DNA of 64,000 bases from Ignavibacteria bacterium. Lineage in GTDB: Bacteria > Bacteroidota > Ignavibacteria > UBA10030 > SZUA-254. The stretch is from contig QJVY01000092.1 in the NCBI GenBank assembly GCA_003235555.1, positions 17,257 through 81,256 on the forward strand, given 5' to 3'. Below, in pieces: positions 5,839 to 24,591 of the stretch. Under the pieces are notes generated by a model that saw nothing but the letters and a program-made list of their open reading frames with translations, was not told the origin of the DNA and searched no databases. The position numbers and the translations under genes were made by a program. Every line of letters begins with the position of its first letter. Position 1 is the first letter of the stretch.

Positions 5839-6357
5839 TTAATTATCGTGAATACCGGGGTTCTTTCCCCGCGATTTCTGTCTGATGAACGGCGCGAGGA
5901 CGTCACCCTCATGGATGATGTGCCTCCGCAGGACCGTGACGAGTTCCCGAATCGTACGGAGGAGGTCTCCCACCGAGCTGCCGTGGATGCGTCCCCCCTC
6001 GATGTCGCGGATGGTCGAGTGCAGTGTGCCGAGCAGCCCCCGTGTGGTGCGATGTTCTTCGCTGAACGACCTGGCGAGGGCGGGATCGATTTTCCGGAGT
6101 TCGGGGAAGAGGAGGTCCTCCTCCAGTTCTTCATGCCGCCGGAACATCTCGTCCAGTGTCGCGCCGACCGAGGAGATCGTATCGAACGAACGGGCCGTGA
6201 AACCCCGTTCGTGGATTGAACGGGCGGCTTCTTCCAGTTCCCTGATCGTTCCGAGGGTGGCGTCCCGGTCCCGTTCGAGGGCAAGCAGCGATCTGCTCCC
6301 TTTCCCGCCCCGGGGCTTCTCGAGGATGGGGACCGTATTTTTCGGCTGGCGGGGCAT
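5839..6357 (-). CDS. Hemerythrin-like (HHE cation-binding) domain protein.
   Basis: Repeated H...HxxxE spacing (HEELE, HIIHE) in a 172-aa acidic helical protein. Moderate confidence. Confidence 0.5.
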   Translation of the reverse strand: MPRQPKNTVPILEKPRGGKGSRSLLALERDRDATLGTIRELEEAARSIHERGFTARSFDTISSVGATLDEMFRRHEELEEDLLFPELRKIDPALARSFSEEHRTTRGLLGTLHSTIRDIEGGRIHGSSVGDLLRTIRELVTVLRRHIIHEGDVLAPFIRQKSRGKNPGIHDN

Positions 6358-6413
6358 AAGTACCGAAGAGAGTGCAACGGGCGTGCCAGTCCCGTCCGGG
6401 GGGCGAACGAACG

Positions 6414-6576: not shown

Positions 6577-7458
6577 TCAGAAAGGCCGCTCATAGTCAAA
6601 CGCGTTGATCTTGCCATTCATGTGGAGCGACTTGTCCGCAATCTTGCCCTGCGCGTCCACCACGCCGAGGTGGCAGTTACCGCAGGTGGTGAGCAATGCC
6701 GGCATGTGGCCGGCCGGGGGCAGCCCGTGGCAGCTGCCGCACGCCGCTTCCGCCGATCCGCCGGTCCAGACCGGGGTGGCGTTCGATCCGGTGATAAATG
6801 CTGATGTGTAGGCAAATTGCCTCGGAGAGGTCGCGCTGTCGGCCCTCCAGTTCCCGTGGCAGTAGGTGTCCGAACAGGTCAGGGCGGTGTAATCATGCGA
6901 GGGAGAGGGAACGATCCCGGCGCTGGCCGTGCGCGCCCGCGGTCCGTTCAGCGGGACCTCCGCCGGAAGGTCGGAGTCCACGTGGCCGGCCGCGTAGACC
7001 GACGTCGGCACGGTGTGGCACTCGTAACACCAGACGATCGAGGAGAGGTTTCCCCCCTGTACGTGCTTCTGGTGCGCGCCCACACCCGCTGCGGCGGTGG
7101 CGGTGTTGCCGGCGAGGTCCTCCGGCGGCGCGGGTGAGTTGGGTCCGCCGTGGCAGGTGGCGCAATTTTCAGGACCTCCTCCGTCCGTGTGGCACGTGCG
7201 GCAGGACACTTCCGCGACCCCGCCGGAGTAGTCGCTCCCGTGGCAGGTCCGGCACGACCGCATGTCCCACGAATCGGCCATGATGGCTTTCCCGTGGAAA
7301 TTCGCCGAGGAAGGGTTCGTCCAGCCCTCGGCGTGCACCGCGATCGCGGGGTTCGTTCCCGCGGGAAGTTTGTCCTTCAGCTCGGCGCACCCGCCGAACA
7401 TGGCCAGGGAGAGGACGGCCGCACTCAGCACCGGAACCAATGTAAGCTGTTTTTTCAT
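6577..7458 (-). CDS. Multiheme c-type cytochrome lipoprotein (6-7 hemes).
   Basis: Signal peptide with a lipobox-like LAMFGGC. CxxCH motifs CRTCH x2, CATCH, CYECH, CGSCH and CGNCH, plus one CX4CH (CSDTYCH). Confidence 0.85.
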   Translation of the reverse strand: MKKQLTLVPVLSAAVLSLAMFGGCAELKDKLPAGTNPAIAVHAEGWTNPSSANFHGKAIMADSWDMRSCRTCHGSDYSGGVAEVSCRTCHTDGGGPENCATCHGGPNSPAPPEDLAGNTATAAAGVGAHQKHVQGGNLSSIVWCYECHTVPTSVYAAGHVDSDLPAEVPLNGPRARTASAGIVPSPSHDYTALTCSDTYCHGNWRADSATSPRQFAYTSAFITGSNATPVWTGGSAEAACGSCHGLPPAGHMPALLTTCGNCHLGVVDAQGKIADKSLHMNGKINAFDYERPF

Positions 7459-7497: not shown

Positions 7498-8613
7498 TCA
7501 GGGTTTCCGCAGCTCCTCAAGTGAGCTCGCGAGCAGCTCCCGCGCGTACTTGGTGTTATGGATCCCTTCGCTCAGATCGTGTTCGATGAAGAAATAATTG
7601 TACAGCGCTCCCGCCTTCACCGCCGGTGTGATCAGCAGTGGCGATGACGAACTCGCGTTGACGCTGCCGCCGGCGGTGATCCACCCCCGGCTCAGCAGCT
7701 CGTCGTGCAGAGCGTCGAGCGAGTCCTCGATGCCCTGCTGGACGAGGTGCATGTCGTCGGCGGAGAAGGACGAGGGGTGGCACCCGGACTGCAGGCAGCC
7801 GGTCAGGAGGGGAACTTCCCCTCCCCCCTCAACTTCGTAGTGGATGTTCATCGTGTGGCCGCCGGCTTTGCCCGTCCCCTGCGCGGGTGGGTACGACTGT
7901 TCGGCCATGTGGCAGGTGGGGCATCCCTCCTGCATGATGACCGCGTTGGTGGTGTGATTCGAGTTCCCCGTGTACGTGTATCCGGGGAACTGGTATCCGC
8001 CGTTGCCCGAGAGCATCTGGCTCTGGACGCCGTAGTGCGAATACCACCGGCTGCTCGTGATGCGGAGGGTGTCCGTCGCTCCGGGGTTCGAGGGCATCTT
8101 CGGCGACGTCGACCGGGGCATGTGGCACTGGGCGCAGAGGTTGCCCTTCCCGTAGTCGAATGTGGCGTCGGGCACGCCGTCGATATTTGAGAGCAGCGTC
8201 ACCGGTGTCGCCTTGCGGAGCGTGAAATTTCCCCTCGAATGCGGTGAATGGCAGGCGAAGCATCCCGGGGGGCTCGGGACGTACTGGTTGGTGACGGTTT
8301 CCCCGTTCATCCGCTGCACGAAACCCTCCGATGTATGGCACCCGGCGCACGACGACCCGTTGCGCTCGCTGTCTCCGCCGTTGGCGTGTTTCGACTGCGC
8401 CCACTGGTAGGCCCGTCCTGCGATGAAATAGGTGGTATCCACATCGGGGTTATGGCAGCTGGCGCATTGTATGCCCTCGGCGAATCCCTCGAAGGCATCG
8501 GATCCGGCTCCCGGCGGACCCTGCGGCCCCGGGTCGCCCTTGCAGCCCGTCATCAGGAATGACACAATCGCCGTGATCGTCAGCGCGAGTGATAGCGTTC
8601 GCATCCTGTTCAT
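7498..8613 (-). CDS. Multiheme c-type cytochrome lipoprotein (5-6 hemes).
   Basis: Signal peptide with lipobox LMTGC. CASCH, CAGCH, CFACH, CAQCH and CPTCH, plus CX4CH (CLQSGCH). Confidence 0.85.
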   Translation of the reverse strand: MNRMRTLSLALTITAIVSFLMTGCKGDPGPQGPPGAGSDAFEGFAEGIQCASCHNPDVDTTYFIAGRAYQWAQSKHANGGDSERNGSSCAGCHTSEGFVQRMNGETVTNQYVPSPPGCFACHSPHSRGNFTLRKATPVTLLSNIDGVPDATFDYGKGNLCAQCHMPRSTSPKMPSNPGATDTLRITSSRWYSHYGVQSQMLSGNGGYQFPGYTYTGNSNHTTNAVIMQEGCPTCHMAEQSYPPAQGTGKAGGHTMNIHYEVEGGGEVPLLTGCLQSGCHPSSFSADDMHLVQQGIEDSLDALHDELLSRGWITAGGSVNASSSSPLLITPAVKAGALYNYFFIEHDLSEGIHNTKYARELLASSLEELRKP

Positions 8614-8667: not shown

Positions 8668-9807
8668 CTACCTGCCCGAATGACAGAGTATGCACGTCGG
8701 GTCCTGTCCCTCGACGTCGTGGCACGACACGCACGATTCGATGTCGCGGCGTCCCATCTGCGCGTGCCTCCCGCCTCCCGAACCGGAGGCGATCATGACC
8801 CATCCGGCTTCGAAATGGGACTGCGGTTTGATCTTTCCCTCCGTCAGGATGCCGCCGTTCTGGTGGCAATCGGCGCAGAAGGCCTGACGATCGTGGCAGC
8901 CGGAGCAATCGATCATCCTGTTGCGGGCGTCGACCGGGTGCGTGAACCGGTAGTTCAGGTCGTGCGCCGCCTGGAGGCGGAGTTCGTCGGGCGAGTCCTT
9001 CAGGGACTGCCGGGCTCCGGGGACGGTCATCAGTCCCCTCGTCCCGCCGAAGCCCCTCAACTGGTCCCCGGTATGGCAGTCCTGGCAGAAACTTTCGGTG
9101 TGGCATGTCGAACAGGTGACGTCCATCGAGCCGAGGCGGACGGCCCTGTCGTGTTCCTTCGCGAACCCCGAGACGAGATGATTTTCGGGGATGAGGTTCG
9201 TGAAGTTCGAGTGGCACGTCTCGCAGTTCACCGACACCTGCTTTGCGGAATGGCAATCGACGCACATCGCCATCGCCGGCATGTGCGATTCTGTGCCACC
9301 CGTTCCGGAATGTGTCATTGCGCCCCCGGCGTCCCCGCCCTCACCACCATTCCCGGTGTCGACCGGGGGGAGGCCGCCGTGGCAGGTTTCGCAGGCTATG
9401 CCGCCGGTGGTCGCGTGTTTCTTGTGTGAAAAAATGAGATCCCGGGAGGGAAGGACCATGGGTTCGATCGCGTCGGGGTTCGTGTGGCAGTAGGAGCAGT
9501 CGTTCTCTATCGCCTCCCCGTGGCATGTTTCGCAGCTCTGGTGGTCCGGGATCAGCCTGTCCAGGGAGGATTCACTTTCGGGGGCGGCTGTGTGGCAGTC
9601 GGCGCAGGCGATTTCCCTCTCGACCACGTGGTTCTCATGTGAGAACATGACGCTCTTCCCGGGCTGCTGCTGTCCGGTTCTGTCCTGTGCGGCGGGTGTG
9701 GCGGCCGCGGACGGTTGTTTCATACCGGTGGCGACGAACAATATGGCAAGCGCGGAAACCGTGATGACGGCCGCGGTGTTCATGGTTTTTCTCATCCCGG
9801 GCGTCAT
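8668..9807 (-). CDS. Periplasmic dodecaheme cytochrome c.
   Basis: N-terminal signal peptide and twelve CxxCH motifs in 379 aa (CADCH, CETCH, CSYCH, CETCH, CVDCH, CETCH, CSTCH, CQDCH, CSGCH, CADCH, CVSCH, CILCH). Its start overlaps the upstream porin gene stop by 4 nt. Confidence 0.85.
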   Translation of the reverse strand: MTPGMRKTMNTAAVITVSALAILFVATGMKQPSAAATPAAQDRTGQQQPGKSVMFSHENHVVEREIACADCHTAAPESESSLDRLIPDHQSCETCHGEAIENDCSYCHTNPDAIEPMVLPSRDLIFSHKKHATTGGIACETCHGGLPPVDTGNGGEGGDAGGAMTHSGTGGTESHMPAMAMCVDCHSAKQVSVNCETCHSNFTNLIPENHLVSGFAKEHDRAVRLGSMDVTCSTCHTESFCQDCHTGDQLRGFGGTRGLMTVPGARQSLKDSPDELRLQAAHDLNYRFTHPVDARNRMIDCSGCHDRQAFCADCHQNGGILTEGKIKPQSHFEAGWVMIASGSGGGRHAQMGRRDIESCVSCHDVEGQDPTCILCHSGR

Positions 9808-11093
9808 AGTAATCCGAGCTGGTGGTGGAACCAGTAACTGACCTTCAGGAACCCCCGCAGGTCGCTGTCCATGAACCTGTTGTTCAGCATCTGGACCTGG
9901 ACATCGAAAGAGAAATGGTCGGCGGGCCTGACCACCGCCCCGAGAGATCCGGCGAACATCGTCTCATCCGGCGACCCCGCCTCGAGCCGGTAACTCGAGT
10001 AGGAAATTGCCGCGGTGGGAACGAGTTTTCTCTCGAGGAGGGGATACATCCCCTGGAGGTAGAACGAGCTCAGCTCTCCGGCGTAACCGTTGGACCCGCT
10101 GTAACTGACGGTGAAATACGTCGTGGTCAACCCCGCCGAGAGCCGGCGGCTGAGGTCTCCATCGTACCCCACGTACGCGAACCGCGCGGAGGCCCGGAGG
10201 GTGCGGGTGAACGCGTACTCCACGCCCCCCTCGTATTCCCGGACCGGCGACAGGGGAAACATGGTGAAAAACGAATTGTAGGGAACCGCGGGTTCGCGGT
10301 AGATGAAGTTCGCGAGGAAGGTGAACTGCGCGGTGATCGCGGCCCGGGCGTTGAGTTCGCCCCTGCGGGTCCGCTCGAGGTTCAGGTCGTAGTCGTAGCG
10401 GCCGTAGAACGATGTCCCGCTCCCCGCGTCGTGGGACGCGTCCACCCCGAACAGTTGCGTCGCCCTCGATCCCGGAGAAATCAGCACCATGACCGGGTTG
10501 AAGAGGGAATCCGCCCGGAGGGTTTCGTATTCCTGCCGTTCGATCCTGCGGTTCACGTAGCTCACGCCGAGGCGGGTACCCGGTGCGATTTCTCCCACCG
10601 CCTGCGCCCCGAGCAGAAAATTTTTGTCCAGGTCGCGGTTATGGTCGTAGACAAGGGAGCCCGGCACGTTCGACCCGCCGTATACTGAAAACGACAATTT
10701 GTTTTCGGCCGCCCTGATTTTGACGAAGCCGCCATCCACACCTCCGACACCCACGCCCGCGAAGACCGGCACCCGGCCAAGCCGGAGTTCAAACGTCCGA
10801 TCGCCGTTGCGATACTTCGCGAAGAGGTTCCGGACACGGAGCTCCGCCCCGTCGCCGATCGACTCGGAGAGGGACGCGGTCCCGAAGACCGACGTGGAGA
10901 GCGTGAAGTTCCCCTGGTTGACGTCCACCTGGAAATTCTGCATTCCCAGGAGAACGTTGCCGGAAGCGCCGACGGTGTCGAATTTTTCCCAGCCGTAGAG
11001 CGATGTGGAGAAGCGTCCGTTGATTTCCTGGGCGGCCGCGGGGAGGGCGAGCAGCACGATCCCGGCGACGAACGTCCGGAGTGCGGTGCGCAT
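9804..11093 (-). CDS. Outer-membrane beta-barrel protein, the putative porin of a porin-cytochrome conduit.
   Basis: Signal peptide MRTALRTFVAGIVLLALPAAAQE. Alternating hydrophobic beta-strand pattern throughout, with an aromatic C-terminal region (KVSYWF). No cofactor motifs. Start taken at the in-frame Met (11093); the ORF track extends to 11123. Confidence 0.55.
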   Translation of the reverse strand: MRTALRTFVAGIVLLALPAAAQEINGRFSTSLYGWEKFDTVGASGNVLLGMQNFQVDVNQGNFTLSTSVFGTASLSESIGDGAELRVRNLFAKYRNGDRTFELRLGRVPVFAGVGVGGVDGGFVKIRAAENKLSFSVYGGSNVPGSLVYDHNRDLDKNFLLGAQAVGEIAPGTRLGVSYVNRRIERQEYETLRADSLFNPVMVLISPGSRATQLFGVDASHDAGSGTSFYGRYDYDLNLERTRRGELNARAAITAQFTFLANFIYREPAVPYNSFFTMFPLSPVREYEGGVEYAFTRTLRASARFAYVGYDGDLSRRLSAGLTTTYFTVSYSGSNGYAGELSSFYLQGMYPLLERKLVPTAAISYSSYRLEAGSPDETMFAGSLGAVVRPADHFSFDVQVQMLNNRFMDSDLRGFLKVSYWFHHQLGLL

Positions 11094-11323
11094 GCTGGCC
11101 CCTGTGAGGGGGAATGCAATCATGAGAATGCTTTAGAAGTCCGATCGCCGAATTGGTGGTGTGACACTACCCTTACGATCATCCGAAGTGAATATCCGCA
11201 AAAAAACAAAAAGATACAATGGAAGTATTGAAGATTTTTACACTGTGCCGGGACGGATTATCGAAAATCCGACCACTTCGGTCGGAGAATAAACCTCCGG
11301 CGATATCCTTCCTCCCGGGGGTA

Positions 11324-11377
11324 GAAATAAAAATCGGACGCGCGAGGGGAGGGCCTCTTCCTCCGGAACGCGCGTCC
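11324..11377 (-). terminator. Rho-independent terminator of the first T9SS cytochrome gene.
   Basis: Minus-sense GGACGCGCG-(24 nt)-CGCGCGUCC, a 9-bp perfect GC stem, followed by GAUUUUUAUUUC. Confidence 0.6.
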
Positions 11378-11468
11378 GATCATCCACCAGTGTACAGATT
11401 CAAGACCGACTGCAGAGTATCGGCCTGTACGGGCCCCGGAAACCCGGGGCCCGCCGGTCCGTTTAAGA

Positions 11469-13586
11469 CTATTTCAGCAGGATCATTTTCTTCACGGAAC
11501 TGAACTCCGCGGTCTGCATCCGGTAGATATAGATACCACCGGCAACATCCTTTCCCGACCCGTCCCTGCCGTCCCAGGAGACCTGGTACACGCCCGGAGC
11601 GTAAGTCCCGTCCATGAGCGTTGCGACCCTGGCACCGAGGACGTTGAAGACTTCCACCCTCACTTCGCCGCTCTTCACCATCCCCACCTTAAAGGTTGTC
11701 GTCGGGTTGAAGGGGTTCGGGTAGTTCTGCGTCAGGACGTATTCCGCGGGTAGCGGTTCGTTCCCGGAGAAATCGATCCCGGTCAACTGGTTCACCGTTG
11801 TCTGCAGGAGTCCGATCACGTATTTGGGATTGTGGGCTCCATGGCTGTGGTCCTCCACGACGTAGAGGTAGTTCCAGTAGACCTGTTTGAGGAAGACGGA
11901 ATCCGGCTCCTCACCGATCAGCGCCCGCGTGATATCGGTGCTGCCGAAGGGGGGAAGCTGCATCGCGATCATGTCGAGGAGCCCATCCACCTCGTGCATG
12001 AACGGTTCGAGCGTTCCGTCCTTGTCGTAGTCGACCGCCGCGACGATATCCGAGAACTCGGTGATCCCCGTGTGGCATTCCACGCACTTGGTCACGTTGT
12101 TGTACTCGACGGAATCCGGGCCCTCGTACTCCATGTTCCAGCTGTGACCGCCGATCTGGTCGCGTGCGACGCTGCCGGTGTCGGGCGTCGGAGACATGTG
12201 ACACCCCACGCAGAGATCATCCACGAGCCGGTGGCCGATGCTGATGGGGATCTCCTGGCCGAAGGTATACCCGTTCTGGCCGAGGAAAACATCGGTCGCG
12301 CCGCGATGGTGCGGCCCCCTGAAACTGGACGCCCGCGTGTTGGGGATGTACGATTCGGGTTCGCGACGATATTTATGACAGTTGGTGCAGAGTTTCCCCT
12401 TCCCGAAGAAAGTCTCGCCGGCATAGGAATAGCCGTTCGCGAGGGTGTCGCTCCCCGGGGGTGTGACCCGGAGTTCGGTCGAGTGGGGATTGTGGCAGGT
12501 CTGACAGGTCATTTCGGAACGTGTCAGTTTGCTGTATCCCGACGATATCCTGTTGTCGAAAGGTTCGCCCTTGGTGAAAGCGACGAATCCCCCGCCGTCG
12601 TGGCAGCGGATACAGGCATCCAGCGTGTAGTTTGTGACGAGCGTGTCCGCGTCGGAGTCGTAACTTCCCGACCACGGTGGGTTGGCATGGCCGGAATTCG
12701 ACCACATCGAATAGAAATTGTGCCGCCACGGTTCATCGTGGCATTGTCCGCACATTTCCGCTTTCATGGTCTTCGGCTGGGTGCCGGGACCGGCATGCGC
12801 CGGATTTTTCGGGCCGTGGCATTGCTCGCATCCGATCCCTGAAAGAAGGGTCATCGTTTTTTTGTCGGTTGTGAGCAGGGAATCGTAGAGACCCGGCCTC
12901 CAGGGCATCCACTGCGTGTCCACGAATCCGACCGCCTGTTGGACTTCATCGAATCCGCCGTTATTGGCGCTGAGGTTGAACCCCGTCGTATGGCATTTGA
13001 AACAGGCCTGACCCCAGTACGAGCCGTTGTCGCCGTTCATGCCCTTCTCGAATTTCTTTGCGTGCCCCGATTCCGACCATGCGGCGTACACCTCTGGCTT
13101 CACCGACGAGTGGCACGTCTTGCAGTTGAATGCGCCCCCGCCCACGTCGTGGCGGTCGACGCCGATGAAATTCGCGGCGACGATGTTCACCGACGTGTCA
13201 ACTCCGCCGATCGTCAACCGGACACTGTAGGTACCGGCAGAATCGGTGTGCAATGTCGTCCACTGTGTGGTCGTGGAATCCAAAACGGCTGCGGAACCCG
13301 CCGGTTTCGAGAGGAGCTCCCAGAGGTAATCCGCTCCCGGGGCGTAGTTCTGTCCGTCGGAAACGTCCCACCCCGAGAGGAAGACACGCGTTCCCTTCCC
13401 CACAAGTGGGAGACCGGTGGTCACGTTGTCATGCTCGTTGGGGTTTTCGAAACCCATCTCGCCGAGCCGATGGGGGCTCATCGGTTCGATCTTGATTGCC
13501 GTCGCAGTCGTCTGCGCGGACACCCCGCCGACGGCCAGGAACAGAAAGAGAATGGAAAGGGTGGAAAACAGTATCATTTTAGCCAT
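11469..13586 (-). CDS. Extracellular nine-heme c-type cytochrome with a T9SS (Por) C-terminal sorting domain; paralog 1.
   Basis: Signal peptide. CxxCH motifs CKTCH, CFKCH, CEQCH, CGQCH, CIRCH, CQTCH, CTNCH, CVGCH and CVECH. The C-terminus ...LTQNYPNPFNPTTTFKV...IYIYRMQTAEFSSVKKMILLK is a Por_Secre_tail-type CTD. Confidence 0.85.
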   Translation of the reverse strand: MAKMILFSTLSILFLFLAVGGVSAQTTATAIKIEPMSPHRLGEMGFENPNEHDNVTTGLPLVGKGTRVFLSGWDVSDGQNYAPGADYLWELLSKPAGSAAVLDSTTTQWTTLHTDSAGTYSVRLTIGGVDTSVNIVAANFIGVDRHDVGGGAFNCKTCHSSVKPEVYAAWSESGHAKKFEKGMNGDNGSYWGQACFKCHTTGFNLSANNGGFDEVQQAVGFVDTQWMPWRPGLYDSLLTTDKKTMTLLSGIGCEQCHGPKNPAHAGPGTQPKTMKAEMCGQCHDEPWRHNFYSMWSNSGHANPPWSGSYDSDADTLVTNYTLDACIRCHDGGGFVAFTKGEPFDNRISSGYSKLTRSEMTCQTCHNPHSTELRVTPPGSDTLANGYSYAGETFFGKGKLCTNCHKYRREPESYIPNTRASSFRGPHHRGATDVFLGQNGYTFGQEIPISIGHRLVDDLCVGCHMSPTPDTGSVARDQIGGHSWNMEYEGPDSVEYNNVTKCVECHTGITEFSDIVAAVDYDKDGTLEPFMHEVDGLLDMIAMQLPPFGSTDITRALIGEEPDSVFLKQVYWNYLYVVEDHSHGAHNPKYVIGLLQTTVNQLTGIDFSGNEPLPAEYVLTQNYPNPFNPTTTFKVGMVKSGEVRVEVFNVLGARVATLMDGTYAPGVYQVSWDGRDGSGKDVAGGIYIYRMQTAEFSSVKKMILLK

Positions 13587-13647
13587 TGGTGGTACCTTCT
13601 GATTATGATTCCGATGGATGATAACGTGATGATTTTGACCACACTAC

Positions 13648-13663
13648 CGCAAAAATCATGCCG
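13648..13663 (-). promoter_or_regulatory. Sigma-54 (-24/-12)-type promoter candidate for paralog 1.
   Basis: Minus-sense CGGCATgatttTTGCG, with GG and GC separated by 10 nt, about 62-77 nt upstream of the start at 13586. Confidence 0.4.
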
Positions 13664-13811
13664 TTGAAAATTTCAACACTTTTGGGGAAATTGGCGAGTT
13701 TTTATACTCTGAAAAGGGGGGAATTTCTCAAATCTGAGGAGTTGGGTGTGTTAACCCTCTGATGCACGGATCGGGGCGGAAGGACCCCCTTTCGGGGATA
13801 TCATGGGTGGA

Positions 13812-13862
13812 GACAAAAATCGGACGCGTGAAAGAGGGACTTCTCCTCCGCAACGCGCGTCC
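13812..13862 (-). terminator. Rho-independent terminator of the second T9SS cytochrome gene; a duplicated copy of the 11324-11377 element.
   Basis: Minus-sense GGACGCGCG...CACGCGUCC stem (1 mismatch) followed by GAUUUUUGUC. About 75 nt of flanking sequence is shared with the paralog-1 terminator. Confidence 0.5.
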
Positions 13863-13952
13863 GATCATCCACCAACGTACAAATATCTTATTTGACCGGA
13901 GAGTGCCGGCCCCGAGGGCCCCGCGTTCGCGGGGCCCTCGGCCCGATTACAA

Positions 13953-16052
13953 TCATTTCAGCAGGATCATCTTCTTCACGGAGCTGAATTCCGCGGTCTT
14001 CATCCGGTAGATATAGATGCCGCCCGCCGCATCCTTTCCGGAGACATCCTTGCCGTCCCACGTTACCTGGTAGACGCCGGGAGGATAGGTCCCCTCCATG
14101 AGTGTCGCAACCCGGGCGCCCAGGACGTTGAACACCTCAACCGTGACCTCTCCCCCCTTCGCCATCCCCACTTTCATGGTCGTGGTCGGGTTGAAGGGGT
14201 TCGGGTAGTTCTGCGTCAGGATATACTCCGACGGAACCGGCTCGTGGCCGCTGAAATCCACGCCCGTGAGGTTGCTGAGGGTCACCTGGAGCAAACCGAT
14301 GATATATTTCGGGTTGTGCGCCCCCTTGCTGTTGTCTTCCTTCACGTACGCGTAGTTGTAGTAGACCGCTTTCATCCGCGCGGAATCGGGATCCGCTTCG
14401 ATCAGGGCGAAATCGATGTCCGTGCTTCCGAACGGCGGCAGCCCCAGCTCCACCATTTCGAGGAGGCCTTCGACTTCCATCTGGAAGGGTTCGGTGGTGC
14501 CGTCCATGTCGTAGTCGAAGCCCGCGACGATATCGCTGAACTTGGTGATACCGGTATGGCACTCGACGCACTTGGTGATGTTGTCGTACTCGACTCCACC
14601 TTCGACATACTTCTGCGTCCAGCTGTGGCCGCCGATCTTGTCGCGGGCCACGGTGCCGGTATCCGCCGTCGCCGACATGTGGCAACCGACGCAGAGGTCG
14701 TCCACCAGCCTGTGGCCGATGCTGTTGGTCAGCGTCTGGCCGAAGGTGTAACCATTCTGCCCGAGGATAACGTCGGCCGCGCCCCGGTGGTGCGGACCGA
14801 AGTGGCTGGAGAGGCGCCCGAGGACGTATGTTTCAGCGTCCCTCCGGTATTTATGGCAGTTGACGCAGATCTTGCCCTTGCCGAAGTTGAACGCCGAGTA
14901 GTCGTACCCGTTGCCCAGAGTATCGCTGGCGGCGGGGGCAACTCTCAACGAAGCATCGTGCGGATCATGGCATGTCTGGCAGTTGATCTTCGTGTGCGTC
15001 AGTTCGCCATATCCCGACGAAATCCGGTTGTCGAAGGGTTCGCCCTTCGTGAACGCCACGAAACCCGCGCCGTCGTGACAGCGGATGCAGGTGCTCAGGC
15101 CGTATTCGGTGACCGGGTTGGCGCCGTCGCTGTCGAAACTACCCGACCAGACCGCCTCGGCGTGGACCGAGTTTTCGAATTCGGAGACCTTGTTGTGCCG
15201 CCACGGTTCGTCGTGGCACTGTGCACAGAGAAGGAAGTCCATCGATTTGGGCTGCGTCCCGGCTCCCGCGTGCGCGGGGTTTTTCGGACCGTGGCAGTTT
15301 TCACAGCCGATACCGGCGACCATGCTCAGCTTGGCCTGGGGGGTGGTGAGCAACGAATCATAGAGGCCGGCCCTCCAGGGTGTCCACTCGGTGTCCACGA
15401 ATCCGAGCGCCTGGGCGACGTCGTCGAACCCGCCGTTGTTCGCGAACTCGTTGTAACCGACCGTGTGGCATCCCCAGCAGGACGGACCCCAGTGGTCGCC
15501 CCACACGTTGTTCAATCCGTTCTCCCACATCATCGCGTGCCCGGAACCGCTCCACTTGCTGACGATCTCGGGGGTGGCCCCGTTGTGGCATGTGAGGCAG
15601 TTGAACGCCCCGCCGCCCACGTTGTTCCTGTCGGCTCCGATGTAGTTGGCCGCAATGATATTGATGCTCGTGTCCTTGCCGCCGATCGTCAGTTTCACGG
15701 TGTAGGTTCCGGCCGAATCGGTATGCAGTGAGGTCCATTGCATCGTGGTCGAATCGAGTATCGCCGCCGAGTTCGCCGGCCGCGCGGTCAGCTCCCAGAG
15801 GTAATCTGCCCCCGGCAGGAACTCATCACTACTGACGTCCCAGCCCGAGAGGTACACCCAGGTGCCTTTTCCCACGACGGGCAGGCCCGACGTCGTGTTA
15901 CCGGCGCCGTTGGCGGATTCGAACCCCATCGTCTCGAGACTATGAGGGGTCAGCGCCTCGATCCTGATGGCAGTCCGCTGGGCGAAGAGATCTCCCCCGG
16001 TTGCGACCAGGATACACATCATGATTACCGCAAACAGTATCGATTTTTTCAT
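13953..16052 (-). CDS. Extracellular nine-heme c-type cytochrome with T9SS C-terminal sorting domain; paralog 2.
   Basis: 699 aa, collinear with 11469-13586. Nine CxxCH motifs. The CTD ...LTQNYPNPFNPTTTMKV...KKMILLK is near-identical to that of paralog 1. Confidence 0.85.
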   Translation of the reverse strand: MKKSILFAVIMMCILVATGGDLFAQRTAIRIEALTPHSLETMGFESANGAGNTTSGLPVVGKGTWVYLSGWDVSSDEFLPGADYLWELTARPANSAAILDSTTMQWTSLHTDSAGTYTVKLTIGGKDTSINIIAANYIGADRNNVGGGAFNCLTCHNGATPEIVSKWSGSGHAMMWENGLNNVWGDHWGPSCWGCHTVGYNEFANNGGFDDVAQALGFVDTEWTPWRAGLYDSLLTTPQAKLSMVAGIGCENCHGPKNPAHAGAGTQPKSMDFLLCAQCHDEPWRHNKVSEFENSVHAEAVWSGSFDSDGANPVTEYGLSTCIRCHDGAGFVAFTKGEPFDNRISSGYGELTHTKINCQTCHDPHDASLRVAPAASDTLGNGYDYSAFNFGKGKICVNCHKYRRDAETYVLGRLSSHFGPHHRGAADVILGQNGYTFGQTLTNSIGHRLVDDLCVGCHMSATADTGTVARDKIGGHSWTQKYVEGGVEYDNITKCVECHTGITKFSDIVAGFDYDMDGTTEPFQMEVEGLLEMVELGLPPFGSTDIDFALIEADPDSARMKAVYYNYAYVKEDNSKGAHNPKYIIGLLQVTLSNLTGVDFSGHEPVPSEYILTQNYPNPFNPTTTMKVGMAKGGEVTVEVFNVLGARVATLMEGTYPPGVYQVTWDGKDVSGKDAAGGIYIYRMKTAEFSSVKKMILLK

Positions 16053-16117
16053 ATGAGTGTCCTGTCTAGTTACAGTGAATGGTGAATTTTCGATCGAGTG
16101 TGTTTATCACCAAAAGG

Positions 16118-16132
16118 GCAAGAATTATGCCA
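16118..16132 (-). promoter_or_regulatory. Sigma-54-type promoter candidate for paralog 2.
   Basis: Minus-sense TGGCATaattcTTGC, 66-80 nt upstream of the start at 16052. This is the same spacing as the paralog-1 motif. Confidence 0.45.
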
Positions 16133-16329
16133 CGGTGACGGCCTGTACAAAAAATGTTTGGGGAGCTGAATTACGGTGGAAGGATGCCGGGGAGAAGAAA
16201 GTGATCAATACACCGCCGGATCGGTGTCGAAATTTTCAACAACCTCTGGATGAAGGGAAGTCCCCCACTCTCGGGGGGAATCCTGTTCTCACACCTGAAA
16301 GGGGGTGGGGGTAATGGGTTAAAATCCCC

Positions 16330-16368
16330 AAAAAAAACCCGGTATGGATGCCGAACATCCATACCGGG
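16330..16368 (-). terminator. Rho-independent terminator of the tetraheme cytochrome gene.
   Basis: Minus-sense CCCGGTATGGATG-uucgg-CAUCCAUACCGGG, a 13-bp perfect stem, followed by UUUUUUUUGGGG, starting 26 nt after the stop. Confidence 0.75.
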
Positions 16369-16393: not shown

Positions 16394-16936
16394 TTATTTC
16401 TTCGGAACCCGGTGCTCGATCTGCGGCCACATCTTGGCGTATTCGAATTTCTTCGCCGTCGGGCTCTTCTCGTTGTGGCATGTGACACAGAGCGCCGTGA
16501 TCGCCTTCTCGTCCTCGTACATCAACAGGCCGGCTTTTTCGGCTTTCTTCGCGTCCTTCATCGTCGCCATGTTCTTGTATCCAGATCCTGCACCGTGGCA
16601 CGATTCACACTGTACACCGTCCTTGACGTCGAATTTCTTGTCGAGCAGTTTGGCATCGGCGGTGATCGTGTGGCATCCCAGACACTCGGGTGTTTCAACG
16701 GCCTTCGTCTTGAATCCCTTCTTGGTGGCGATGGCGTCCGCTTCCTTCGTCAGGAGCACACTGTAGGCCTCGGAGTGTTTGCTCTTCGACCAGATCTCGA
16801 ATTGTTTACCCTGCTTTTCAGTATTGTGGCACATCTTGCACGTCGTCGTGCCCACGTATGTGTTCTGGGCGCTCGTGAGGGATGACAACACGAAGATGAG
16901 GCCGGCCAGGAGGGCGATGATTGTGAATCTGCTCAT
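16394..16936 (-). CDS. Periplasmic tetraheme c-type cytochrome.
   Basis: Signal peptide MSRFTIIALLAGLIFVLSSLTSAQ. CKMCH, CLGCH, CESCH and CVTCH in 180 aa. Confidence 0.8.
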   Translation of the reverse strand: MSRFTIIALLAGLIFVLSSLTSAQNTYVGTTTCKMCHNTEKQGKQFEIWSKSKHSEAYSVLLTKEADAIATKKGFKTKAVETPECLGCHTITADAKLLDKKFDVKDGVQCESCHGAGSGYKNMATMKDAKKAEKAGLLMYEDEKAITALCVTCHNEKSPTAKKFEYAKMWPQIEHRVPKK

Positions 16937-17049: not shown

Positions 17050-17065
17050 TGCATATTTCGTGCCA
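17050..17065 (-). promoter_or_regulatory. Sigma-54 promoter, near consensus, for the tetraheme cytochrome.
   Basis: Minus-sense TGGCACgaaatATGCA (GG-N10-GC), about 115 nt upstream of the ATG at 16936, in an AT-rich intergenic region. Confidence 0.5.
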
Positions 17066-17216: not shown

Positions 17217-17633
17217 TCAATTCACGGAGTTCAGGATCTTCCGGACGAGTGAAACCATAAAGTTGAGGTTGAACGGTTTTTCAACGAAATAGTCCACCAT
17301 CCTGCTTTTCCCCACCTCTTCGAGTGACTCCTCCCCGTGTTCGATCGCCAGTACGAGGGGGGTCCTCCCCGAGATCGTCTTGATCCGCACCGCAAGTTCC
17401 AGGCCGTCCATCCCGGGGAGGTGGTAGTCGCTGATCACAAGGTCGACCGGTCCCTCGTTGAATTTCCGGAGAGCATCCTCGCCGCATTCCACGACATCTG
17501 GATCATAGCCGGCGCGCCCGAGGGCGTTCGCCATTGACCAGCCCAGGAGCGCTTCGTCTTCGACGATCAGGATCTTCTTGACATCCCGTGAGGGTACGGG
17601 TGGCGGGAGGGAATATGGTGAATTATTCAGCAC
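17217..17633 (-). CDS. Stand-alone response-regulator receiver (CheY-like).
   Basis: KKILIVEDE...DLVISDYHLPGMDGLEL...K receiver motifs. 138 aa with no output domain. Confidence 0.75.
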   Translation of the reverse strand: MLNNSPYSLPPPVPSRDVKKILIVEDEALLGWSMANALGRAGYDPDVVECGEDALRKFNEGPVDLVISDYHLPGMDGLELAVRIKTISGRTPLVLAIEHGEESLEEVGKSRMVDYFVEKPFNLNFMVSLVRKILNSVN

Positions 17634-17667
17634 CGTAACCGGTTGCGATCTGTGTGCGTACAGGAAG

Positions 17668-17682
17668 GCAAACTTTATGCCA
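17668..17682 (-). promoter_or_regulatory. Sigma-54-type promoter for the stand-alone receiver gene.
   Basis: Minus-sense TGGCATaaagtTTGC, 35-49 nt upstream of the start at 17633. Confidence 0.45.
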
Positions 17683-17804
17683 CCGCCAGAAAGGGGGATT
17701 GAGGCGTGGGTGTATGGTTATCGGCCGGTGGCGCGTAAGGGCACTGATCGTGATGACCCGTTTGTGTCAAATCACCCAGAGAGAGGCTCCGGTGCCGCGG
17801 ATGG

Positions 17805-19165
<1,361 letters not shown>

Positions 19166-19166
<1 letters not shown>

Positions 19167-20689
19167 TACGATTTGTCCTTCGCGATCTCCCCGGGATCGA
19201 CGGGGAGGCGTACACGGCAGGTCGTCCCTGCCTGGTCCCCGCTTTCGAGGGAGATGGTACCATGGTGCTGTTCAACGATGCGCCGGGAGATGGTCAGCCC
19301 CAGACCGGTCCCCTGGTGCTTGGTCGTGTAGAACGGCCTGAAAATATTTTCACGTTCGGCCGGGGCGATCCCCTTCCCGGTGTCGCGGACGGTCACCGTC
19401 ACCGACCCGTTCCCGCCCTCGGTCGCGACGCTCACCCGCCCACCGTCGTCGGCGGCCTGCACGGCGTTTAAAATGACGTTCCAGAGGAGCTGCTGGAGGA
19501 GTTTCCTGTCCGCCGTCAGCCGCGGCAGCTCCCTGTCGAGCGACAGGTCGACCGTCACGTTTTTCTTCAACGCCTGCGAGGTCATGATCGAGACCGTCCG
19601 GTCGATGATGCCGTTCAGGTCGGTGAGGTCGAACCTGGGCGGGGAGGGCCTCGCGTAGCTCAGCAGGTCGTTGACCGCGAGGTTCATCCGCTCCATCTGC
19701 ACCATCATCTCCTGGAGTATCGGTTTGTTCGGGTCGACGTCGGCCAGGTCTGAATCGATCACCTGGAGCGCCCCCAGGACCCCCGCCAGCGGGTTTCGGA
19801 TTTCATGCGCCATGCTGGCCGCCATCTCACCGGTGGTCGCCAGCCGGTCGGCGTGCTCCAGCTGTTCATGGTGGAGTTGATGGAGGCGCCCGTGGGCCTC
19901 GTTCAACCGCTCCACCAGTGTGTTGAACGTGGTGATCAGGTCGGAAATTTCATCGTTTCTCGGAGACGGTTCCAGCGTGGAAAAAATCACCGGCTGCCCC
20001 TTTTCGACCCCCGCCAGCTGGTTCTGCAGCGTCCCCATCCGCTGCCGCAGAGTGGAAACGGGCCGGATCACCAGGACGAGCAGCGCCCCGGAAATGACCA
20101 GGCCGATTCCGCCGAACGTCACGATCGTCATCAGGATGTTCATCGTCCGGTGGTTCATGGACGCCTCCTGGATGTGGCCCATGGTGATCTTGACGGCCAT
20201 GTATCCGAGGACAGGTGCGGTGCCCGCGTGACATCCCGAGCAGCTCGGTTTCCTCTCGAGCGGCGTGAGGACGTACTGGAAGGGGGTCCCATCTTCCGTC
20301 CGCGAGAGGAACATCCCCCCGGGGAAACCTTCGCTCTCCCGGTACTCCGAGATCCGGAAGACCCGTCCGGAACTGTCCGGTACCGTGCTCACGCTGATTC
20401 CACCGTCGGGTTTGAGTAAGAACAGTGCCGCGATGTGGCCGGTGGAGTCTATCGTCCGCATGGCCGCCTGGAGGTGACTTTTTTCACCCTGGAGCATCAT
20501 GAATTCCACCACCCCCCTGCCGTACCGTGCGAGCGTGTACGCCTTGTCCCGTCCGTACTCGTTCAACATCTCCGTGCCCGTCCTGTAGGCGAAGTACGCG
20601 AAGCTGCCGCCGGCCACGACCAGGGCCGCCGCGACCGCCGCGATCATCTTCCGCCCGACGGAGTTGAATATTCGGGGGAGCATGGTCAT
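19166..20689 (-). CDS. Sensor histidine kinase with a heme-c (CxxCH) motif in its periplasmic sensor domain.
   Basis: TM1 at about residues 15-35 and TM2 at about 183-208 flank a ~145-aa periplasmic domain containing CSGCH. The cytoplasmic part carries HisKA (HEIRNPL) and HATPase_c. The start overlaps the ccmF stop by 4 nt, and the stop overlaps the NtrC start by 1 nt. Confidence 0.85.
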
Positions 20690-22944
20690 ACCATGGTCAC
20701 TGCGTCCGACTTCAGCCGTTTGACAAATGCGAGCAGGGTACCCCCGATGATGAACACGACGCCCGTCCAGAGCACCATCATCATCGGGATCATGCTGACA
20801 TCCAGCAGGAGCGCGGTGTTCTGCGGGGAGGACTCGTCCCCCTCGAAACCATGGAATTCCAGCAGGATTTTTTTGGCCTCGACCTGCATGCCGGCCAGGA
20901 TGACCTGGGGTTGCACCGTCCCCTTCGAGGGGTTGACCAGGGCCGGCAGGTCGACGGGCCCCGATTCCCGTTCACCGTTGCGGTTGAACGCGACCGTGGG
21001 GACGACGGAGTGGTCGTTCCCGTGGACGGGAACGTTGAGAACCGCTCCCACCATCATCGCGCCGGACTCGCTGTGCTGGGTCATGTCGAACTTCCGGAAC
21101 TCGATCTCGTAGCCATTGATGGATTTCTTCTCCCCCATGACGAGCTCCAGGGACGGATGGTTGTGGCCGCCCCCCGAACCCTGAAGTTCCATCGGGGAGA
21201 GGTAGAGGTCCTTGAGGGGCAGGACCCTGATGTGCGGCTCGCGCATGACACCCTTGTTGTATTCGCTGTAATAGAGTTTCGGCGTGGCCGCGAACTTCGA
21301 GACCCCGTCGGAGATTTCCAGGACGACGACGTTTTTCGCGTCGGGGGCCGGCTCCATGCCCCTGAAGGTGACGTCATAGCCGAACACACTCTGAGGCTCG
21401 TTCTCCTTCAACAGCACCTTCCGTGATTCCGTGAAGTTCCCCGATCCGACGATCCCGAGCATCAGCAGGGCCGCTCCGATGTGGCCGATCGGCCCGCCGA
21501 GCCCCAGGAACCCTGAGCGGTACTGCCTGAATGCAATGATCGAATTGCTGATCAGCGCGAATGCCGACATCGCGGTGAACAGGAGCATCATCGGCTCGGT
21601 GACGCCGGCCACGAACGCGATGACACCCCCAAGGACCGTCAGCACCAGCGGCAGGGAAAGCCGCCTCAGCAGCGACGCGGTATTGTCCCCCGCCCAGCCG
21701 AGAAAGGGTGTCACGCCCAGCAGGAGCGCCATCACGATCGCCACCGGCAGGTTGACCCTGTTGTAGAAGGAGATGTCCACCTGGGATGCCTTTCCCACCA
21801 GCCCGGTGAGGATCGGCGACGACATTCCGACGAAGGTGAACGCCGCGCAGGCCGAAAGCGCGTAGATGCTGAGCACGAGGAAGATTTCCCGGTAGAACGA
21901 GTGGTGGTCCACCGGCGGCGATTTGATTTCCCGGAACCGCCTGAAAAACATCCCGAATCCGAAGAGCGCTGTCGCCAGCATGACCGCGACGAGGTAGTTG
22001 TTGATTCCGAGGTCGACGAAGGAGTGCACGGAAAAATCCGCGAGGACACCGCTGCGGGTCAGGAAGGTCGCATAGAGGACCAGTAAAAAAACGATGATGG
22101 CGAGGAACATGTTCGTCCGCCGGAGGGACCCCCTTCCCCTCTCGACGACCATTCCGTGGATGAGCGCCAGCATCATCAGCCAGGGGACCAGGGAGGAATT
22201 TTCCACCGGGTCCCACCCCCAGTACCCGCCCCATCCCAGGACTTCGTAGGCCCAGAATCCTCCGATGATGATCCCCGCGCCGAGCATGGTCCCCGCAAAG
22301 AGCGTCCATCTGAACCCGAACGTCTTCCAGGCATCGTATTTCCGCGTCGTGAGGCCGGCCATCACGAGCGCGAAGGGAAAGATCGCCGCGGCGTAGCCCA
22401 CGAACAGAATCGGCGGATGGATGGCCATCCAGGGGTCCTGCAGGAGTGGGTTCATCCCCTGCCCGTCCGGCGGTACCATCTTTGTCATCTCGAACGGGCT
22501 CTGTACCAGCATCAGGAGATGTAAAAACGCGATATAGAGGCACACCACCGCGGGCGCGACCCCGGACCTGATCCCCTGCTTATGGATTAAAACGAGTCCC
22601 ATCAGCGCCACCATCAGGGCCCAGAGGAGGAATGTTCCTTCCTGTCCCGCCCAGAAAGAGGAGATGAGGTAGAGCATCGGCAGCGAACGTGAACTGTAAT
22701 GCGCCACGTAGGCGTATTCGAAGGAGTGGGTGAGGAGATGATAGTAGAGCAGGATCGACGAAGCGATGACCGACACGGTCGCGACGTGGTAGAGCTGTAT
22801 CGCGGCACGCGGCGGCGTCCCCCCTCTATTCCCCCTTTGCGCCCGGTTTTTCGGGTCCTGTCTGCCCGGTGCGGTGAAGAAAAACCACGCGGCGCCGAGC
22901 GACGCCAGGAACGTGATGAGTATGGTCAACTGGCCGGAATTCAT
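20686..22944 (-). CDS. ccmF: Cytochrome c-type biogenesis heme lyase CcmF/NrfE family.
   Basis: Polytopic, 752 aa. Diagnostic CcmF motifs: WAGQEGTFLLWA, NPLLQDPWMAIHPPILFVGY and the WWD region WAYEVLGWGGYWGWDPVENSSLVPWL, followed by a CcmF C-terminal domain. Confidence 0.85.
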   Translation of the reverse strand: MNSGQLTILITFLASLGAAWFFFTAPGRQDPKNRAQRGNRGGTPPRAAIQLYHVATVSVIASSILLYYHLLTHSFEYAYVAHYSSRSLPMLYLISSFWAGQEGTFLLWALMVALMGLVLIHKQGIRSGVAPAVVCLYIAFLHLLMLVQSPFEMTKMVPPDGQGMNPLLQDPWMAIHPPILFVGYAAAIFPFALVMAGLTTRKYDAWKTFGFRWTLFAGTMLGAGIIIGGFWAYEVLGWGGYWGWDPVENSSLVPWLMMLALIHGMVVERGRGSLRRTNMFLAIIVFLLVLYATFLTRSGVLADFSVHSFVDLGINNYLVAVMLATALFGFGMFFRRFREIKSPPVDHHSFYREIFLVLSIYALSACAAFTFVGMSSPILTGLVGKASQVDISFYNRVNLPVAIVMALLLGVTPFLGWAGDNTASLLRRLSLPLVLTVLGGVIAFVAGVTEPMMLLFTAMSAFALISNSIIAFRQYRSGFLGLGGPIGHIGAALLMLGIVGSGNFTESRKVLLKENEPQSVFGYDVTFRGMEPAPDAKNVVVLEISDGVSKFAATPKLYYSEYNKGVMREPHIRVLPLKDLYLSPMELQGSGGGHNHPSLELVMGEKKSINGYEIEFRKFDMTQHSESGAMMVGAVLNVPVHGNDHSVVPTVAFNRNGERESGPVDLPALVNPSKGTVQPQVILAGMQVEAKKILLEFHGFEGDESSPQNTALLLDVSMIPMMMVLWTGVVFIIGGTLLAFVKRLKSDAVTMV

Positions 22945-23037
22945 GATGTATTCTCGTGATCGGTATTGGAGTGCACGTCTTCATTCGAGGGAAAGCGACA
23001 TCAAAATCCAGAATTTCTTCCCTTTCCGGGCAATAAT

Positions 23038-23052
23038 GCAATCTTTATGCCA
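23038..23052 (-). promoter_or_regulatory. Sigma-54-type promoter for the ccmF-kinase-NtrC operon.
   Basis: Minus-sense TGGCATaaagaTTGC, about 95-108 nt upstream of the ccmF start at 22944. Confidence 0.45.
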
Positions 23053-23202
23053 GAGCGGGATATCGGTCAGGACGGGTGGGTTTTTTCACCCACCCCCGGC
23101 GGAGGGGGCCCTTTTTTTCAGCGGTGAAAAATATTACATCAAAACGATCTCAGAAATGACTCGGACTCGGTATATCGAAATGGAGGGGATGATCAGGTCG
23201 GG

Positions 23203-24564
23203 CTATTTTTCGGTCGATATGGAAAGTTCTTTGATCCTACGGTATAACGTGGGCAGGCTGATTTGAAGTGATTTCGCCGTCTTTTCCTTGTCGAAATCGT
23301 TTTTCCTGAGGACGGCGACGATGTATTCCCTGGCGAGGTCGTTCACCACCTGGTCGAGGGATTTGTCCCCGTCGGCGGAGGGGACGGGCGGATAATTGTG
23401 GAAGGTGTCGGGGAGATCGGCAACGGTAATGGAGTCCCCCTTCGCGAAGATGACCGCACGCTCCACGATATTCTCCAGTTCCCGGACCTCCCCTCTCCAC
23501 GGGTGGTGGATCAGCAGGCGCATGACCTCCTGGTCGACCCCCTGCATCTTTCTGCCCATCTCCGACGAAAATTTTTCGAGGAAATGGTTGACCAGTATCG
23601 GGATGTCTTCCTTTCTTTCCGTCAGCGACGGCAGCCGGATTTCGACAATGTTGAGACGGTAGAAGAGGTCCTCGCGGAACCTTCCTGCTTCGATTTCTTT
23701 GCGGAGGTCCCGGTTGGTCGTCGCGATGAACCTCACGTCGACGGCCTGGGGTTCCGACGTCCCCACCGGAACGATTTCCTTCTGCTCGATCGCGCGCAGG
23801 AGTTTCACCTGGAGCTGGACCGGCATCTCGCTGATCTCGTCGAGCAGGAGCGTTCCCCCGTCGGCGGCCTTGAAGTAGCCCCCGCGGTCGGCGAGCGCCC
23901 CGGTGAAGGATCCTTTTTTATGGCCGAAGAGTTCGCTCTCGATGAGAGATTCGGGGATCGCGCCGCAGTTGACCGCGATGAAGGGCCTGTCGGCCCGCGG
24001 GCTGTTGGCATGGACCGCCCTCGCCACCATCTCCTTCCCCGTTCCGCTCTTCCCGGTGATGAGGACGGTCCCGTCGGTCGCCGAGATCCGCCGGACCGTG
24101 TCGAAGATCCGTTCCATCGCGGGACTCTGCCCGATGAGGTTCTTGAAGTCCACCCCACCGCTCGCTTCCTCGCGAAGGTACTGGTTTTCCCAGATGAGTT
24201 TCCTGTGCTCGAGCAGCCGCCGGATTTTGAGAGTGAGCTCGTCGAATTCGATCGGCTTCAGGATGTAGTCGTTCGCACCCTTGCGCAGCGCCGCGATAGC
24301 GGTCTCCATCGACCCGTACGCGGTGATGATCACGACGATGGTCTGGGGGCTGAGCTCCTTGATTTTTTCGAGGAGTTCCATCCCCTTCATTTCCGGCATC
24401 TCGAGGTCGGTGATCACCAGGTCGTACGATTTTTCGACGAACTTGTCGTAGGCCACCCTCCCGTTCGGGGCCTCCTCGACGCGGAACCCCTCCTTCTTCA
24501 GGATGAACGATGCGGATTCCCTGATGATCTGTTCGTCGTCGACGATGAGTATCGTGTCTGCCAT
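23203..24564 (-). CDS. Sigma-54-dependent response regulator (NtrC family), second copy.
   Basis: Receiver domain (ILIVDDE..DLVITDLEMP), then an AAA+ sigma-54 activator domain (GKSGTGKE..), then HTH. 453 aa. Confidence 0.9.
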   Translation of the reverse strand: MADTILIVDDEQIIRESASFILKKEGFRVEEAPNGRVAYDKFVEKSYDLVITDLEMPEMKGMELLEKIKELSPQTIVVIITAYGSMETAIAALRKGANDYILKPIEFDELTLKIRRLLEHRKLIWENQYLREEASGGVDFKNLIGQSPAMERIFDTVRRISATDGTVLITGKSGTGKEMVARAVHANSPRADRPFIAVNCGAIPESLIESELFGHKKGSFTGALADRGGYFKAADGGTLLLDEISEMPVQLQVKLLRAIEQKEIVPVGTSEPQAVDVRFIATTNRDLRKEIEAGRFREDLFYRLNIVEIRLPSLTERKEDIPILVNHFLEKFSSEMGRKMQGVDQEVMRLLIHHPWRGEVRELENIVERAVIFAKGDSITVADLPDTFHNYPPVPSADGDKSLDQVVNDLAREYIVAVLRKNDFDKEKTAKSLQISLPTLYRRIKELSISTEK

Positions 24565-24591
24565 GGTTATCGCTTGATGATGTGCACGGTG

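Follow-up and report, generated by a model that had tools for sequence, protein, structure and literature searches.

Here we describe two tandem genes, designated A and B, in a 64,000-nucleotide stretch of DNA (henceforth the window) from an Ignavibacteria bacterium (contig QJVY01000092.1, positions 17,257 to 81,256, of assembly GCA_003235555.1). Their products are OcwA-type nonahaem c-type cytochromes, with an OcwA/NrfA-like fold, that end in a domain scoring as a type IX secretion system (T9SS) sorting signal; such a tail on OcwA-like cytochromes suggests a so far undescribed route to the cell surface. We consider it probable (at roughly 0.62) that A and B are T9SS-exported terminal electron-transfer cytochromes, which serve an adjacently encoded porin-cytochrome conduit and are under sigma-54 control. 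We establish domain content, fold, homology, and the conservation of gene order, promoters, and terminators; export by the T9SS, surface location, conduit contact, and the direction of electron flow are inferred. The two proteins are of a widespread sort and belong among known kinds, i.e., surface cytochromes of extracellular electron transfer and T9SS cargo, without constituting a new category.

In the proposed mechanism, A and B would be exported to the periplasm by the Sec system and loaded with their nine haems by the cytochrome c maturation (Ccm) system. Following this periplasmic haem attachment, the T9SS would carry these OcwA-type cytochromes, already folded, to the outside of the cell where, either anchored or loosely attached, they would form the outermost electron-transfer module of the conduit encoded downstream. 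This conduit would comprise a barrel of ~24 strands, a periplasmic cytochrome with 12 haems, and a pair of lipoprotein cytochromes, and would be fed by a c554-like tetrahaem protein. Respiratory electrons would thereby reach, through A and B, acceptors that are insoluble or extracellular, such as Fe(III)/Mn(IV) minerals, humics, electrodes, and partner cells. Expression would be sigma-54 dependent, from a separate promoter for each gene, under two adjacent NtrC-type two-component systems.

Architecture of the two cytochromes

An earlier note on this DNA, made from the letters and translations, had described two open reading frames (ORFs) of ~700 amino acids (aa) without stating their strand; its observation is confirmed, and its interpretation is supported to the extent that sequences and predicted structures allow. 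Both were recovered on the minus strand, with gene B (13953..16052) encoding a 699-aa nonahaem cytochrome and gene A (11469..13586) encoding a 705-aa paralog of the same architecture. A motif count returned exactly nine CxxCH motifs in each protein, in agreement with the earlier note, and no CxxCK motif in either; the single Cys lying outside a haem motif is found in the signal peptide of B. The proteins are 68% identical over their full length and 86–87% identical over the last 80–90 aa, close to the "about 85%" that had been given for the C-terminus.

Both signal peptides read as signal peptidase I (SPI)-like, with a basic n-region, a hydrophobic core, and predicted cleavage between VSA and Q in A (13515–13586) and between LFA and Q in B (aa 1–24; 15981–16052), bearing out the signal peptide proposed for each protein. 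In an alignment of the CTD-cytochrome family (i.e., cytochromes with a T9SS-type C-terminal domain [CTD]), this Gln (Q25) is nearly invariant. A Gln is also predicted at position +1 in all four SPI-type signal peptides of the cluster, namely those of B (16052..), A (13586..), the c554-like protein (16936..), and the barrel (11123..). This fits the "Q-rule" described for Bacteroidetes, adherence to which is reported to be high in Ignavibacterium album too.

An AlphaFold2 model of B, obtained from 75 homologs with a mean pLDDT of 88.6, resolves into four parts. These are an Ig/PKD-like sandwich at residues 27–135 (15648–15974), a mostly helical/loop haem core at ~141–600 (14253–15632), a low-pLDDT linker at ~600–612, and a C-terminal sandwich that the linker precedes (CTD aa 611–699; 13956–14222). 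In A, the CTD occupies aa 617–705 (11472–11738).

Homology of the haem core with OcwA and OmhA

Searched as a single sequence against the PDB with phmmer, the cytochrome gave no significant match, whereas a family profile matched PDB sequences 6QVM (E 2.5e-15), 6I5B (E 7.8e-15), and NrfA (E 3e-9). The first two are surface proteins of iron reducers: 6QVM is OmhA, the S-layer undecahaem cytochrome of Carboxydothermus ferrireducens, and 6I5B is OcwA (TherJR_2595), a cell-surface nonahaem terminal reductase of Thermincola potens that reduces iron oxides and electrodes (PMC6703420). In the profile alignment, all nine haem motifs of A and B are collinear with those of OcwA, and the fold shared with the OcwA/OmhA clade includes the C-terminal helical bundle. 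His286 of B aligns with the distal-pocket His282 of OcwA and is nearly invariant (conserved in at least 90%), while at the second distal-pocket site (OcwA His381) a His-rich stretch (H417/H421/H422) stands against HHPH of OcwA, with the register shifted in the HMM alignment. The haem core of A and B is thus homologous to that of OcwA and OmhA, and the earlier suggestion that the pair are plausible terminal reductases gains support from this kinship to experimentally surface-located reductases of two Gram-positive iron reducers. The differences are also considerable, with identity at only ~27%: OcwA and OmhA are cell-wall or S-layer proteins of monoderm Firmicutes, whereas A and B belong to a diderm and have, in addition, an Ig/PKD-like domain at the N-terminus and a sorting domain for the T9SS.

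Two other identities were considered for the core and rejected. The outer-surface decahaem/dodecahaem lipoproteins MtrC/OmcA of Shewanella and OmcB-type of Geobacter have the same proposed job, i.e., that of a conduit's outermost haem wire, and PF22113 scores above its cut-off on A and B. Yet the fold search returned OcwA and NrfA, not MtrC, and A and B do not have the staggered-cross decahaem fold with lipoprotein anchor that marks MtrC/OmcA; their fold is OcwA/NrfA-like and not MtrC/OmcA-like. For NrfA itself, PF02335 scored 27.5 and 23.3 on the two proteins (cut-off 24.1) over a partial stretch only. Identity with this enzyme, which has a pentahaem core and a CxxCK active-site haem, was discarded given the missing CxxCK and the rank of NrfA below OcwA and OmhA.

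The C-terminal tail as a T9SS sorting domain

Both tails pass the TIGR04183 (T9SS type A) cut-off of 23 bits, with 32.2 bits for A (residues 622–702 of 705) and 36.7 bits for B (616–696 of 699); the earlier note had named failure of the C-terminal 80 residues to score as a T9SS CTD as the outcome that would count against it, and the reverse was found. In the model of B, the CTD is a seven-strand (3+4) Ig-like β-sandwich reaching the last residue. Structurally it resembles the CTDs of PorU, mirolase, and PorZ, and the CTD of PorU is matched by profile too. The tail alignment contains an invariant Gly645, which precedes the fourth strand, and a conserved terminal KKM-LLK motif. The two correspond to the CTD features reported as functionally required, namely a Gly of the β3-β4 loop and a Lys-containing C-terminal motif (PMC11285876).

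A and B therefore resemble T9SS type A cargo (RgpB, HBP35, mirolase, along with PorU and PorZ, which bear the same domain) in their Sec signal, seven-strand Ig-like CTD, Gly in the β3-β4 region, and Lys-containing last strand. They differ in that known cargo consists of proteases, glycosidases, adhesins, and motility proteins, whereas A and B are multihaem redox proteins loaded covalently with haem. An HMM built from the family tails matched exactly four ORFs of the window: A, B, an S15 X-Pro dipeptidyl-peptidase-like protein (34349–36271, minus strand), and a sortilin/BNR-repeat protein (31127–34225, minus strand), the latter two scoring above the PF18962 cut-off. This genome thus places the same tail on typical secreted-hydrolase-type proteins, and a T9SS has been reported as likely in Ignavibacteriota (PMC11285876, PMC5837995).

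The adjacent porin-cytochrome conduit

Directly downstream of A and B, and likewise on the minus strand, lie genes for an outer-membrane β-barrel, a 12-haem cytochrome, and two lipoprotein cytochromes. The barrel (9804..11123; 439 aa) is the presumed conduit porin; it has no Cys, and its model (pLDDT 91.3) is large and plug-less with ~24 predicted strands. Neither Pfam nor NCBIfam offers a match to it, and in structural comparison its best match is a protein other than MtrB. The dodecahaem cytochrome (8668..9807; 379 aa, SPI signal) is the presumed periplasm-to-barrel insert, and the start of its gene overlaps the stop of the barrel gene by 4 nt. The lipoprotein cytochromes follow at 7498..8613 (371 aa; lipobox LMTGC; 5 CxxCH and 1 CX4CH) and at 6577..7458 (293 aa; lipobox FGGC; 6 CxxCH and 1 CX4CH; PF09698). 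Upstream of A and B, and co-conserved with the CTD-cytochromes, is the gene for the tetrahaem c554-like cytochrome (16394..16936, minus strand; 180 aa, SPI signal).

The order c554-like gene, CTD-cytochrome(s), barrel, and cytochromes recurs on the independent contigs L085 (81% identity to B in the CTD-cytochromes), L083 (65%), and L086 (55%), and in the near-identical contig L088, with six further contigs appearing to carry the cytochrome and barrel families together. This conserved order supports the partnership with the neighbouring conduit that had been put forward from the window. The cluster resembles the porin-cytochrome conduit (Pcc) clusters of Geobacter (OmaB-OmbB-OmcB) and the OmbB-like clusters of Ignavibacteria in coupling a barrel gene translationally to a periplasmic multihaem cytochrome, together with lipoprotein cytochromes. 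Clusters of the OmbB-like type have already been described in Melioribacter roseus and Ignavibacterium album (PMC7399161). As published, however, Pcc clusters come with no mention of a secretion tail on their cytochromes, the word "secretion" occurring 0 times in PMC7399161 and PMC5492636. In L086, the place of the second cytochrome copy is taken by a 272-aa protein (12291–13109) consisting of little beyond a T9SS-type CTD.

Points of doubt and alternative readings

Several observations weigh against A and B being surface-exposed T9SS cargo that reduces external acceptors by way of this conduit, and three other readings are conceivable. The first concerns the tail. The earlier note had called it a canonical Por/T9SS CTD, and while both tails do pass TIGR04183, their PF18962 scores (20.4 and 23.5 bits) fall just short of the cut-off of 27, rendering "canonical" slightly generous. 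Moreover, PF13860 (FlgD_ig) scores higher than PF18962 on both, at 33.3 and 35.2 bits (cut-off 27), and generic Ig-like folds such as that of the tail also occur in proteins outside the T9SS. No gene for T9SS machinery (SprA/Sov, PorK/L/M/N, PorU, PorV) is present within the 64-kb window. In the open full-text literature, to which our searches were confined (subscription-only papers being outside their scope), there was no report of a c-type holocytochrome or multihaem protein as T9SS cargo, nor anything relevant linking the T9SS, type IX, or Por secretion to multihaem cytochromes or extracellular electron transfer. As OcwA also reduces nitrite and hydroxylamine (PMC6703420), a soluble-substrate role is possible for A and B as well.

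A and B could be periplasmic enzymes that catalyse the reduction of soluble oxyanions of nitrogen or sulfur, with chemistry akin to that of NrfA, ONR, or OcwA, the C-terminal Ig-like domain playing a structural, FlgD-like part in place of acting as a secretion signal. We judge this very improbable. Neither protein has the CxxCK haem, the nearest relatives to have been characterised (OcwA and OmhA) reside at the surface, and the genes sit in a porin-cytochrome cluster as opposed to beside nrfH-type partners. In addition to passing TIGR04183, the tail domain reaches precisely to the C-terminus, where its final strand is rich in K as is typical of T9SS CTDs, and it recurs on the secreted-type hydrolases of this genome.

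A second reading accepts T9SS export but has the tail cleaved without anchoring, such that A and B would be released as diffusible or matrix-embedded carriers in a role comparable to that of Geobacter PgcA/OmcZ. Both the surface and the medium are possible destinations of T9SS cargo (PMC5837995), and a flexible linker does precede the CTD. Furthermore, a tandem pair with 39% identity (L081/L082) has no conduit nearby, from which it follows that conduit partnership is not universal, a further point of doubt for the preferred reading. The tight, conserved linkage to barrel and cytochrome genes in four loci nevertheless speaks for proteins that stay at the conduit, and the N-terminal Ig/PKD-like domain could equally serve docking. 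Anchored and released cargo are not distinguished by sequence, and we hold release to be unlikely, though worth keeping in view.

Finally, the architecture and export may be as proposed with the flow reversed, i.e., the surface cytochromes would accept electrons, with Fe(II), a cathode, or a partner in syntrophy as the donor, and the conduit would bring them to the periplasm. The direction of electron flow is not readable from sequence, and homologs of reductive porin-cytochrome systems are used by other bacteria to oxidise Fe(II) (PMC7399161). OcwA and OmhA, however, act in iron reduction, and those Ignavibacteria in culture that possess such clusters reduce iron (PMC7399161); the adjacent acetate kinase and phosphotransacetylase genes also fit, weakly, an organotroph. 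Inward flow is thus rather improbable in our estimation, with outward transfer from a T9SS-delivered surface cytochrome remaining the reading we favour.

Distribution and significance

B has matches in no fewer than 1975 clusters formed at 90% identity. The named relatives stem from metagenome-assembled genomes of Bacteroidota or Ignavibacteria, groups for which a T9SS has been reported or suspected, some of these relatives being annotated automatically as "T9SS type A sorting domain-containing protein". The NYPNPF tail is kept in 119 of the 120 closest family clusters, for 104 of which PF18962 is on record, and nine haem motifs are present in 112 of 115 close relatives. A scan of contigs was dominated by the generic CTD motif QNYPNPFN, with full-length relatives at 3 of 80 loci, and yielded no usable taxonomic range.

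Taken alone, the haem core has 1539 representatives at 50% identity. Among the best 150 of these, 75 carry a T9SS-type tail, with the others ending in different recurrent motifs. Among representatives P0247–P0394, the OcwA-like cores without a T9SS tail terminate in "[FY][FY]RV..P", "VPGAxLR", or "WxxY", and some are fused into giants of 16–24 haems; these alternative C-terminal motifs may be lineage-specific localisation modules. A crude regular-expression comparison of lipobox and CTD among core relatives gave no more than a weak trend towards a complementary distribution (5/63 versus 12/61).

Anode biofilms, aquifers, sediments, and wastewater reactors commonly harbour Ignavibacteria and related Bacteroidota, which are suspected of respiring iron or electrodes. 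To our knowledge, the means by which their outer cytochromes get outside has not previously been addressed. Elsewhere, cytochromes reach the surface through lipoprotein display dependent on the type II secretion system in Proteobacteria, and through wall or S-layer anchoring in Gram-positive bacteria. Across Fibrobacterota-Chlorobiota-Bacteroidota, the T9SS may then be a general route to the surface for cytochromes of extracellular electron transfer and a third independent solution, with the OcwA-type core re-used in monoderms and diderms together with exchangeable, lineage-specific C-terminal modules; we regard the odds of this broader proposal as about even. Should the tail be functional, the T9SS would gain a class of cargo consisting of folded redox proteins with covalently bound cofactors, and the combination of a multihaem core with a TIGR04183 tail would afford a simple metagenome marker for surface-exposed electron-transfer proteins in the superphylum. 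Surface reductases of Gram-positive and Gram-negative bacteria would moreover be linked by one haem core with swappable anchoring modules.

An old duplication with recent gene conversion

A and B fall into separate ortholog clades, both of which are retained in at least three genomes, indicating that the duplication is old. The two parts of A nonetheless differ in affiliation. Its haem core is A-type, with 78–81% identity to A-clade orthologs versus 63–66% to the B clade, whereas its CTD is B-type, with 87% identity to B and 84–86% to B-clade tails versus only 67–70% to A-clade tails. Together with a hairpin and U-run copied from B, this points to gene conversion of the 3′ end, with the tract affected spanning 11312–11738 (CTD and terminator of A) against 13798–14222 (B). 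The same homogenisation has arisen independently in L083, where tails are 81% and cores 63% identical. The "tandem duplicated" description of the earlier note therefore holds as regards the presence of two paralogs; a recent tandem copy is rejected, as the clades are separate and only the CTD and terminator have been homogenised.

The 3′ regions are of matching layout. After B (13798..13952, minus strand), a GC-rich hairpin (13886–13952; −42.7 kcal/mol, z −5.7) is followed by a long, terminator-like hairpin with U-run (13798–13885; −35.5 kcal/mol, z −3.9). After A (11312..11468, minus strand), the same two-hairpin arrangement ends in a hairpin and U-run at 11312–11400 (−38.9 kcal/mol, z −3.5) that is a 75–86% identical DNA copy of that of B. 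With stable folds at both copies, the copied terminator of the earlier note is confirmed. A search of the intergenic elements against Rfam returned nothing credible.

Regulatory elements and neighbouring genes

A sigma-54-type −24/−12 element is situated ~65–80 nt upstream of each start codon, at 16117..16132 (minus strand) for B (TGGCATAATTCTTGCC) and at 13648..13663 (minus strand) for A (CGGCATGATTTTTGCG). Window-wide, the sigma-54 consensus is not enriched, with 11 matches against 15.4 expected. Of these 11, five fall in co-oriented regions of 150 nt upstream of genes, which make up 4.3% of strand space (P ~6e-5), and all five lie within the cytochrome/regulator cluster. In L083 and L085, the A element is kept upstream of the A orthologs, and the B element is kept at the same upstream distance in the B orthologs, amid spacers that have otherwise diverged. 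The elements carry weight only through this positional test and ortholog conservation, both of which favour a separate sigma-54-type promoter for each copy, as had been supposed. The strong intrinsic terminator directly after the c554-like gene (16338–16368, minus strand; 14-bp stem, U8) indicates that this gene and B are probably separate transcripts.

The palindrome GTTGAAA(A/T)TTTCAAC abuts the −24 element of A (13663..13677), with a second copy (16226..16240) ~92 nt upstream of the −24 element of B. As GTTGAAAnTTTCrAC, this 15-nt palindrome has no occurrences other than those next to the two CTD-cytochrome promoters (6 strand-hits versus 0.57 expected). It has been retained upstream of the A orthologs as well, and may be bound by one of the neighbouring sigma-54 activators. 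These activators are encoded in a regulatory/maturation block (17217..26094, all minus strand) that is also found in L083 and L088. The block comprises a response regulator (17217–17633), an NtrC-type sigma-54 activator (17805–19166), a histidine kinase (19166–20689), a CcmF/NrfE-like haem lyase (20686–22944), a second NtrC-type activator (23203–24564), and a PAS histidine kinase (24592–26094).

Comparable sigma-54 sites stand at 17065..17050 before the c554-like gene, at 17682..17667 before the response regulator, and at 23052..23037 before the ccmF-like gene. A perfect consensus, TGGCACGCCCGTTGCA, occurs at 6373–6388 (minus strand), 16 nt before a hemerythrin gene (5839–6357, minus strand) after which come genes for a ferredoxin, an acetate-kinase-like protein, and a phosphotransacetylase. 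The lipoprotein cytochromes of the conduit each contain one odd CX4CH motif (CLQSGCH and CSDTYCH). The CcmF/NrfE-like gene stands alone within the cytochrome/regulator cluster, an arrangement kept in L083 and L088, and its product may be a dedicated haem lyase for the CX4CH motif.

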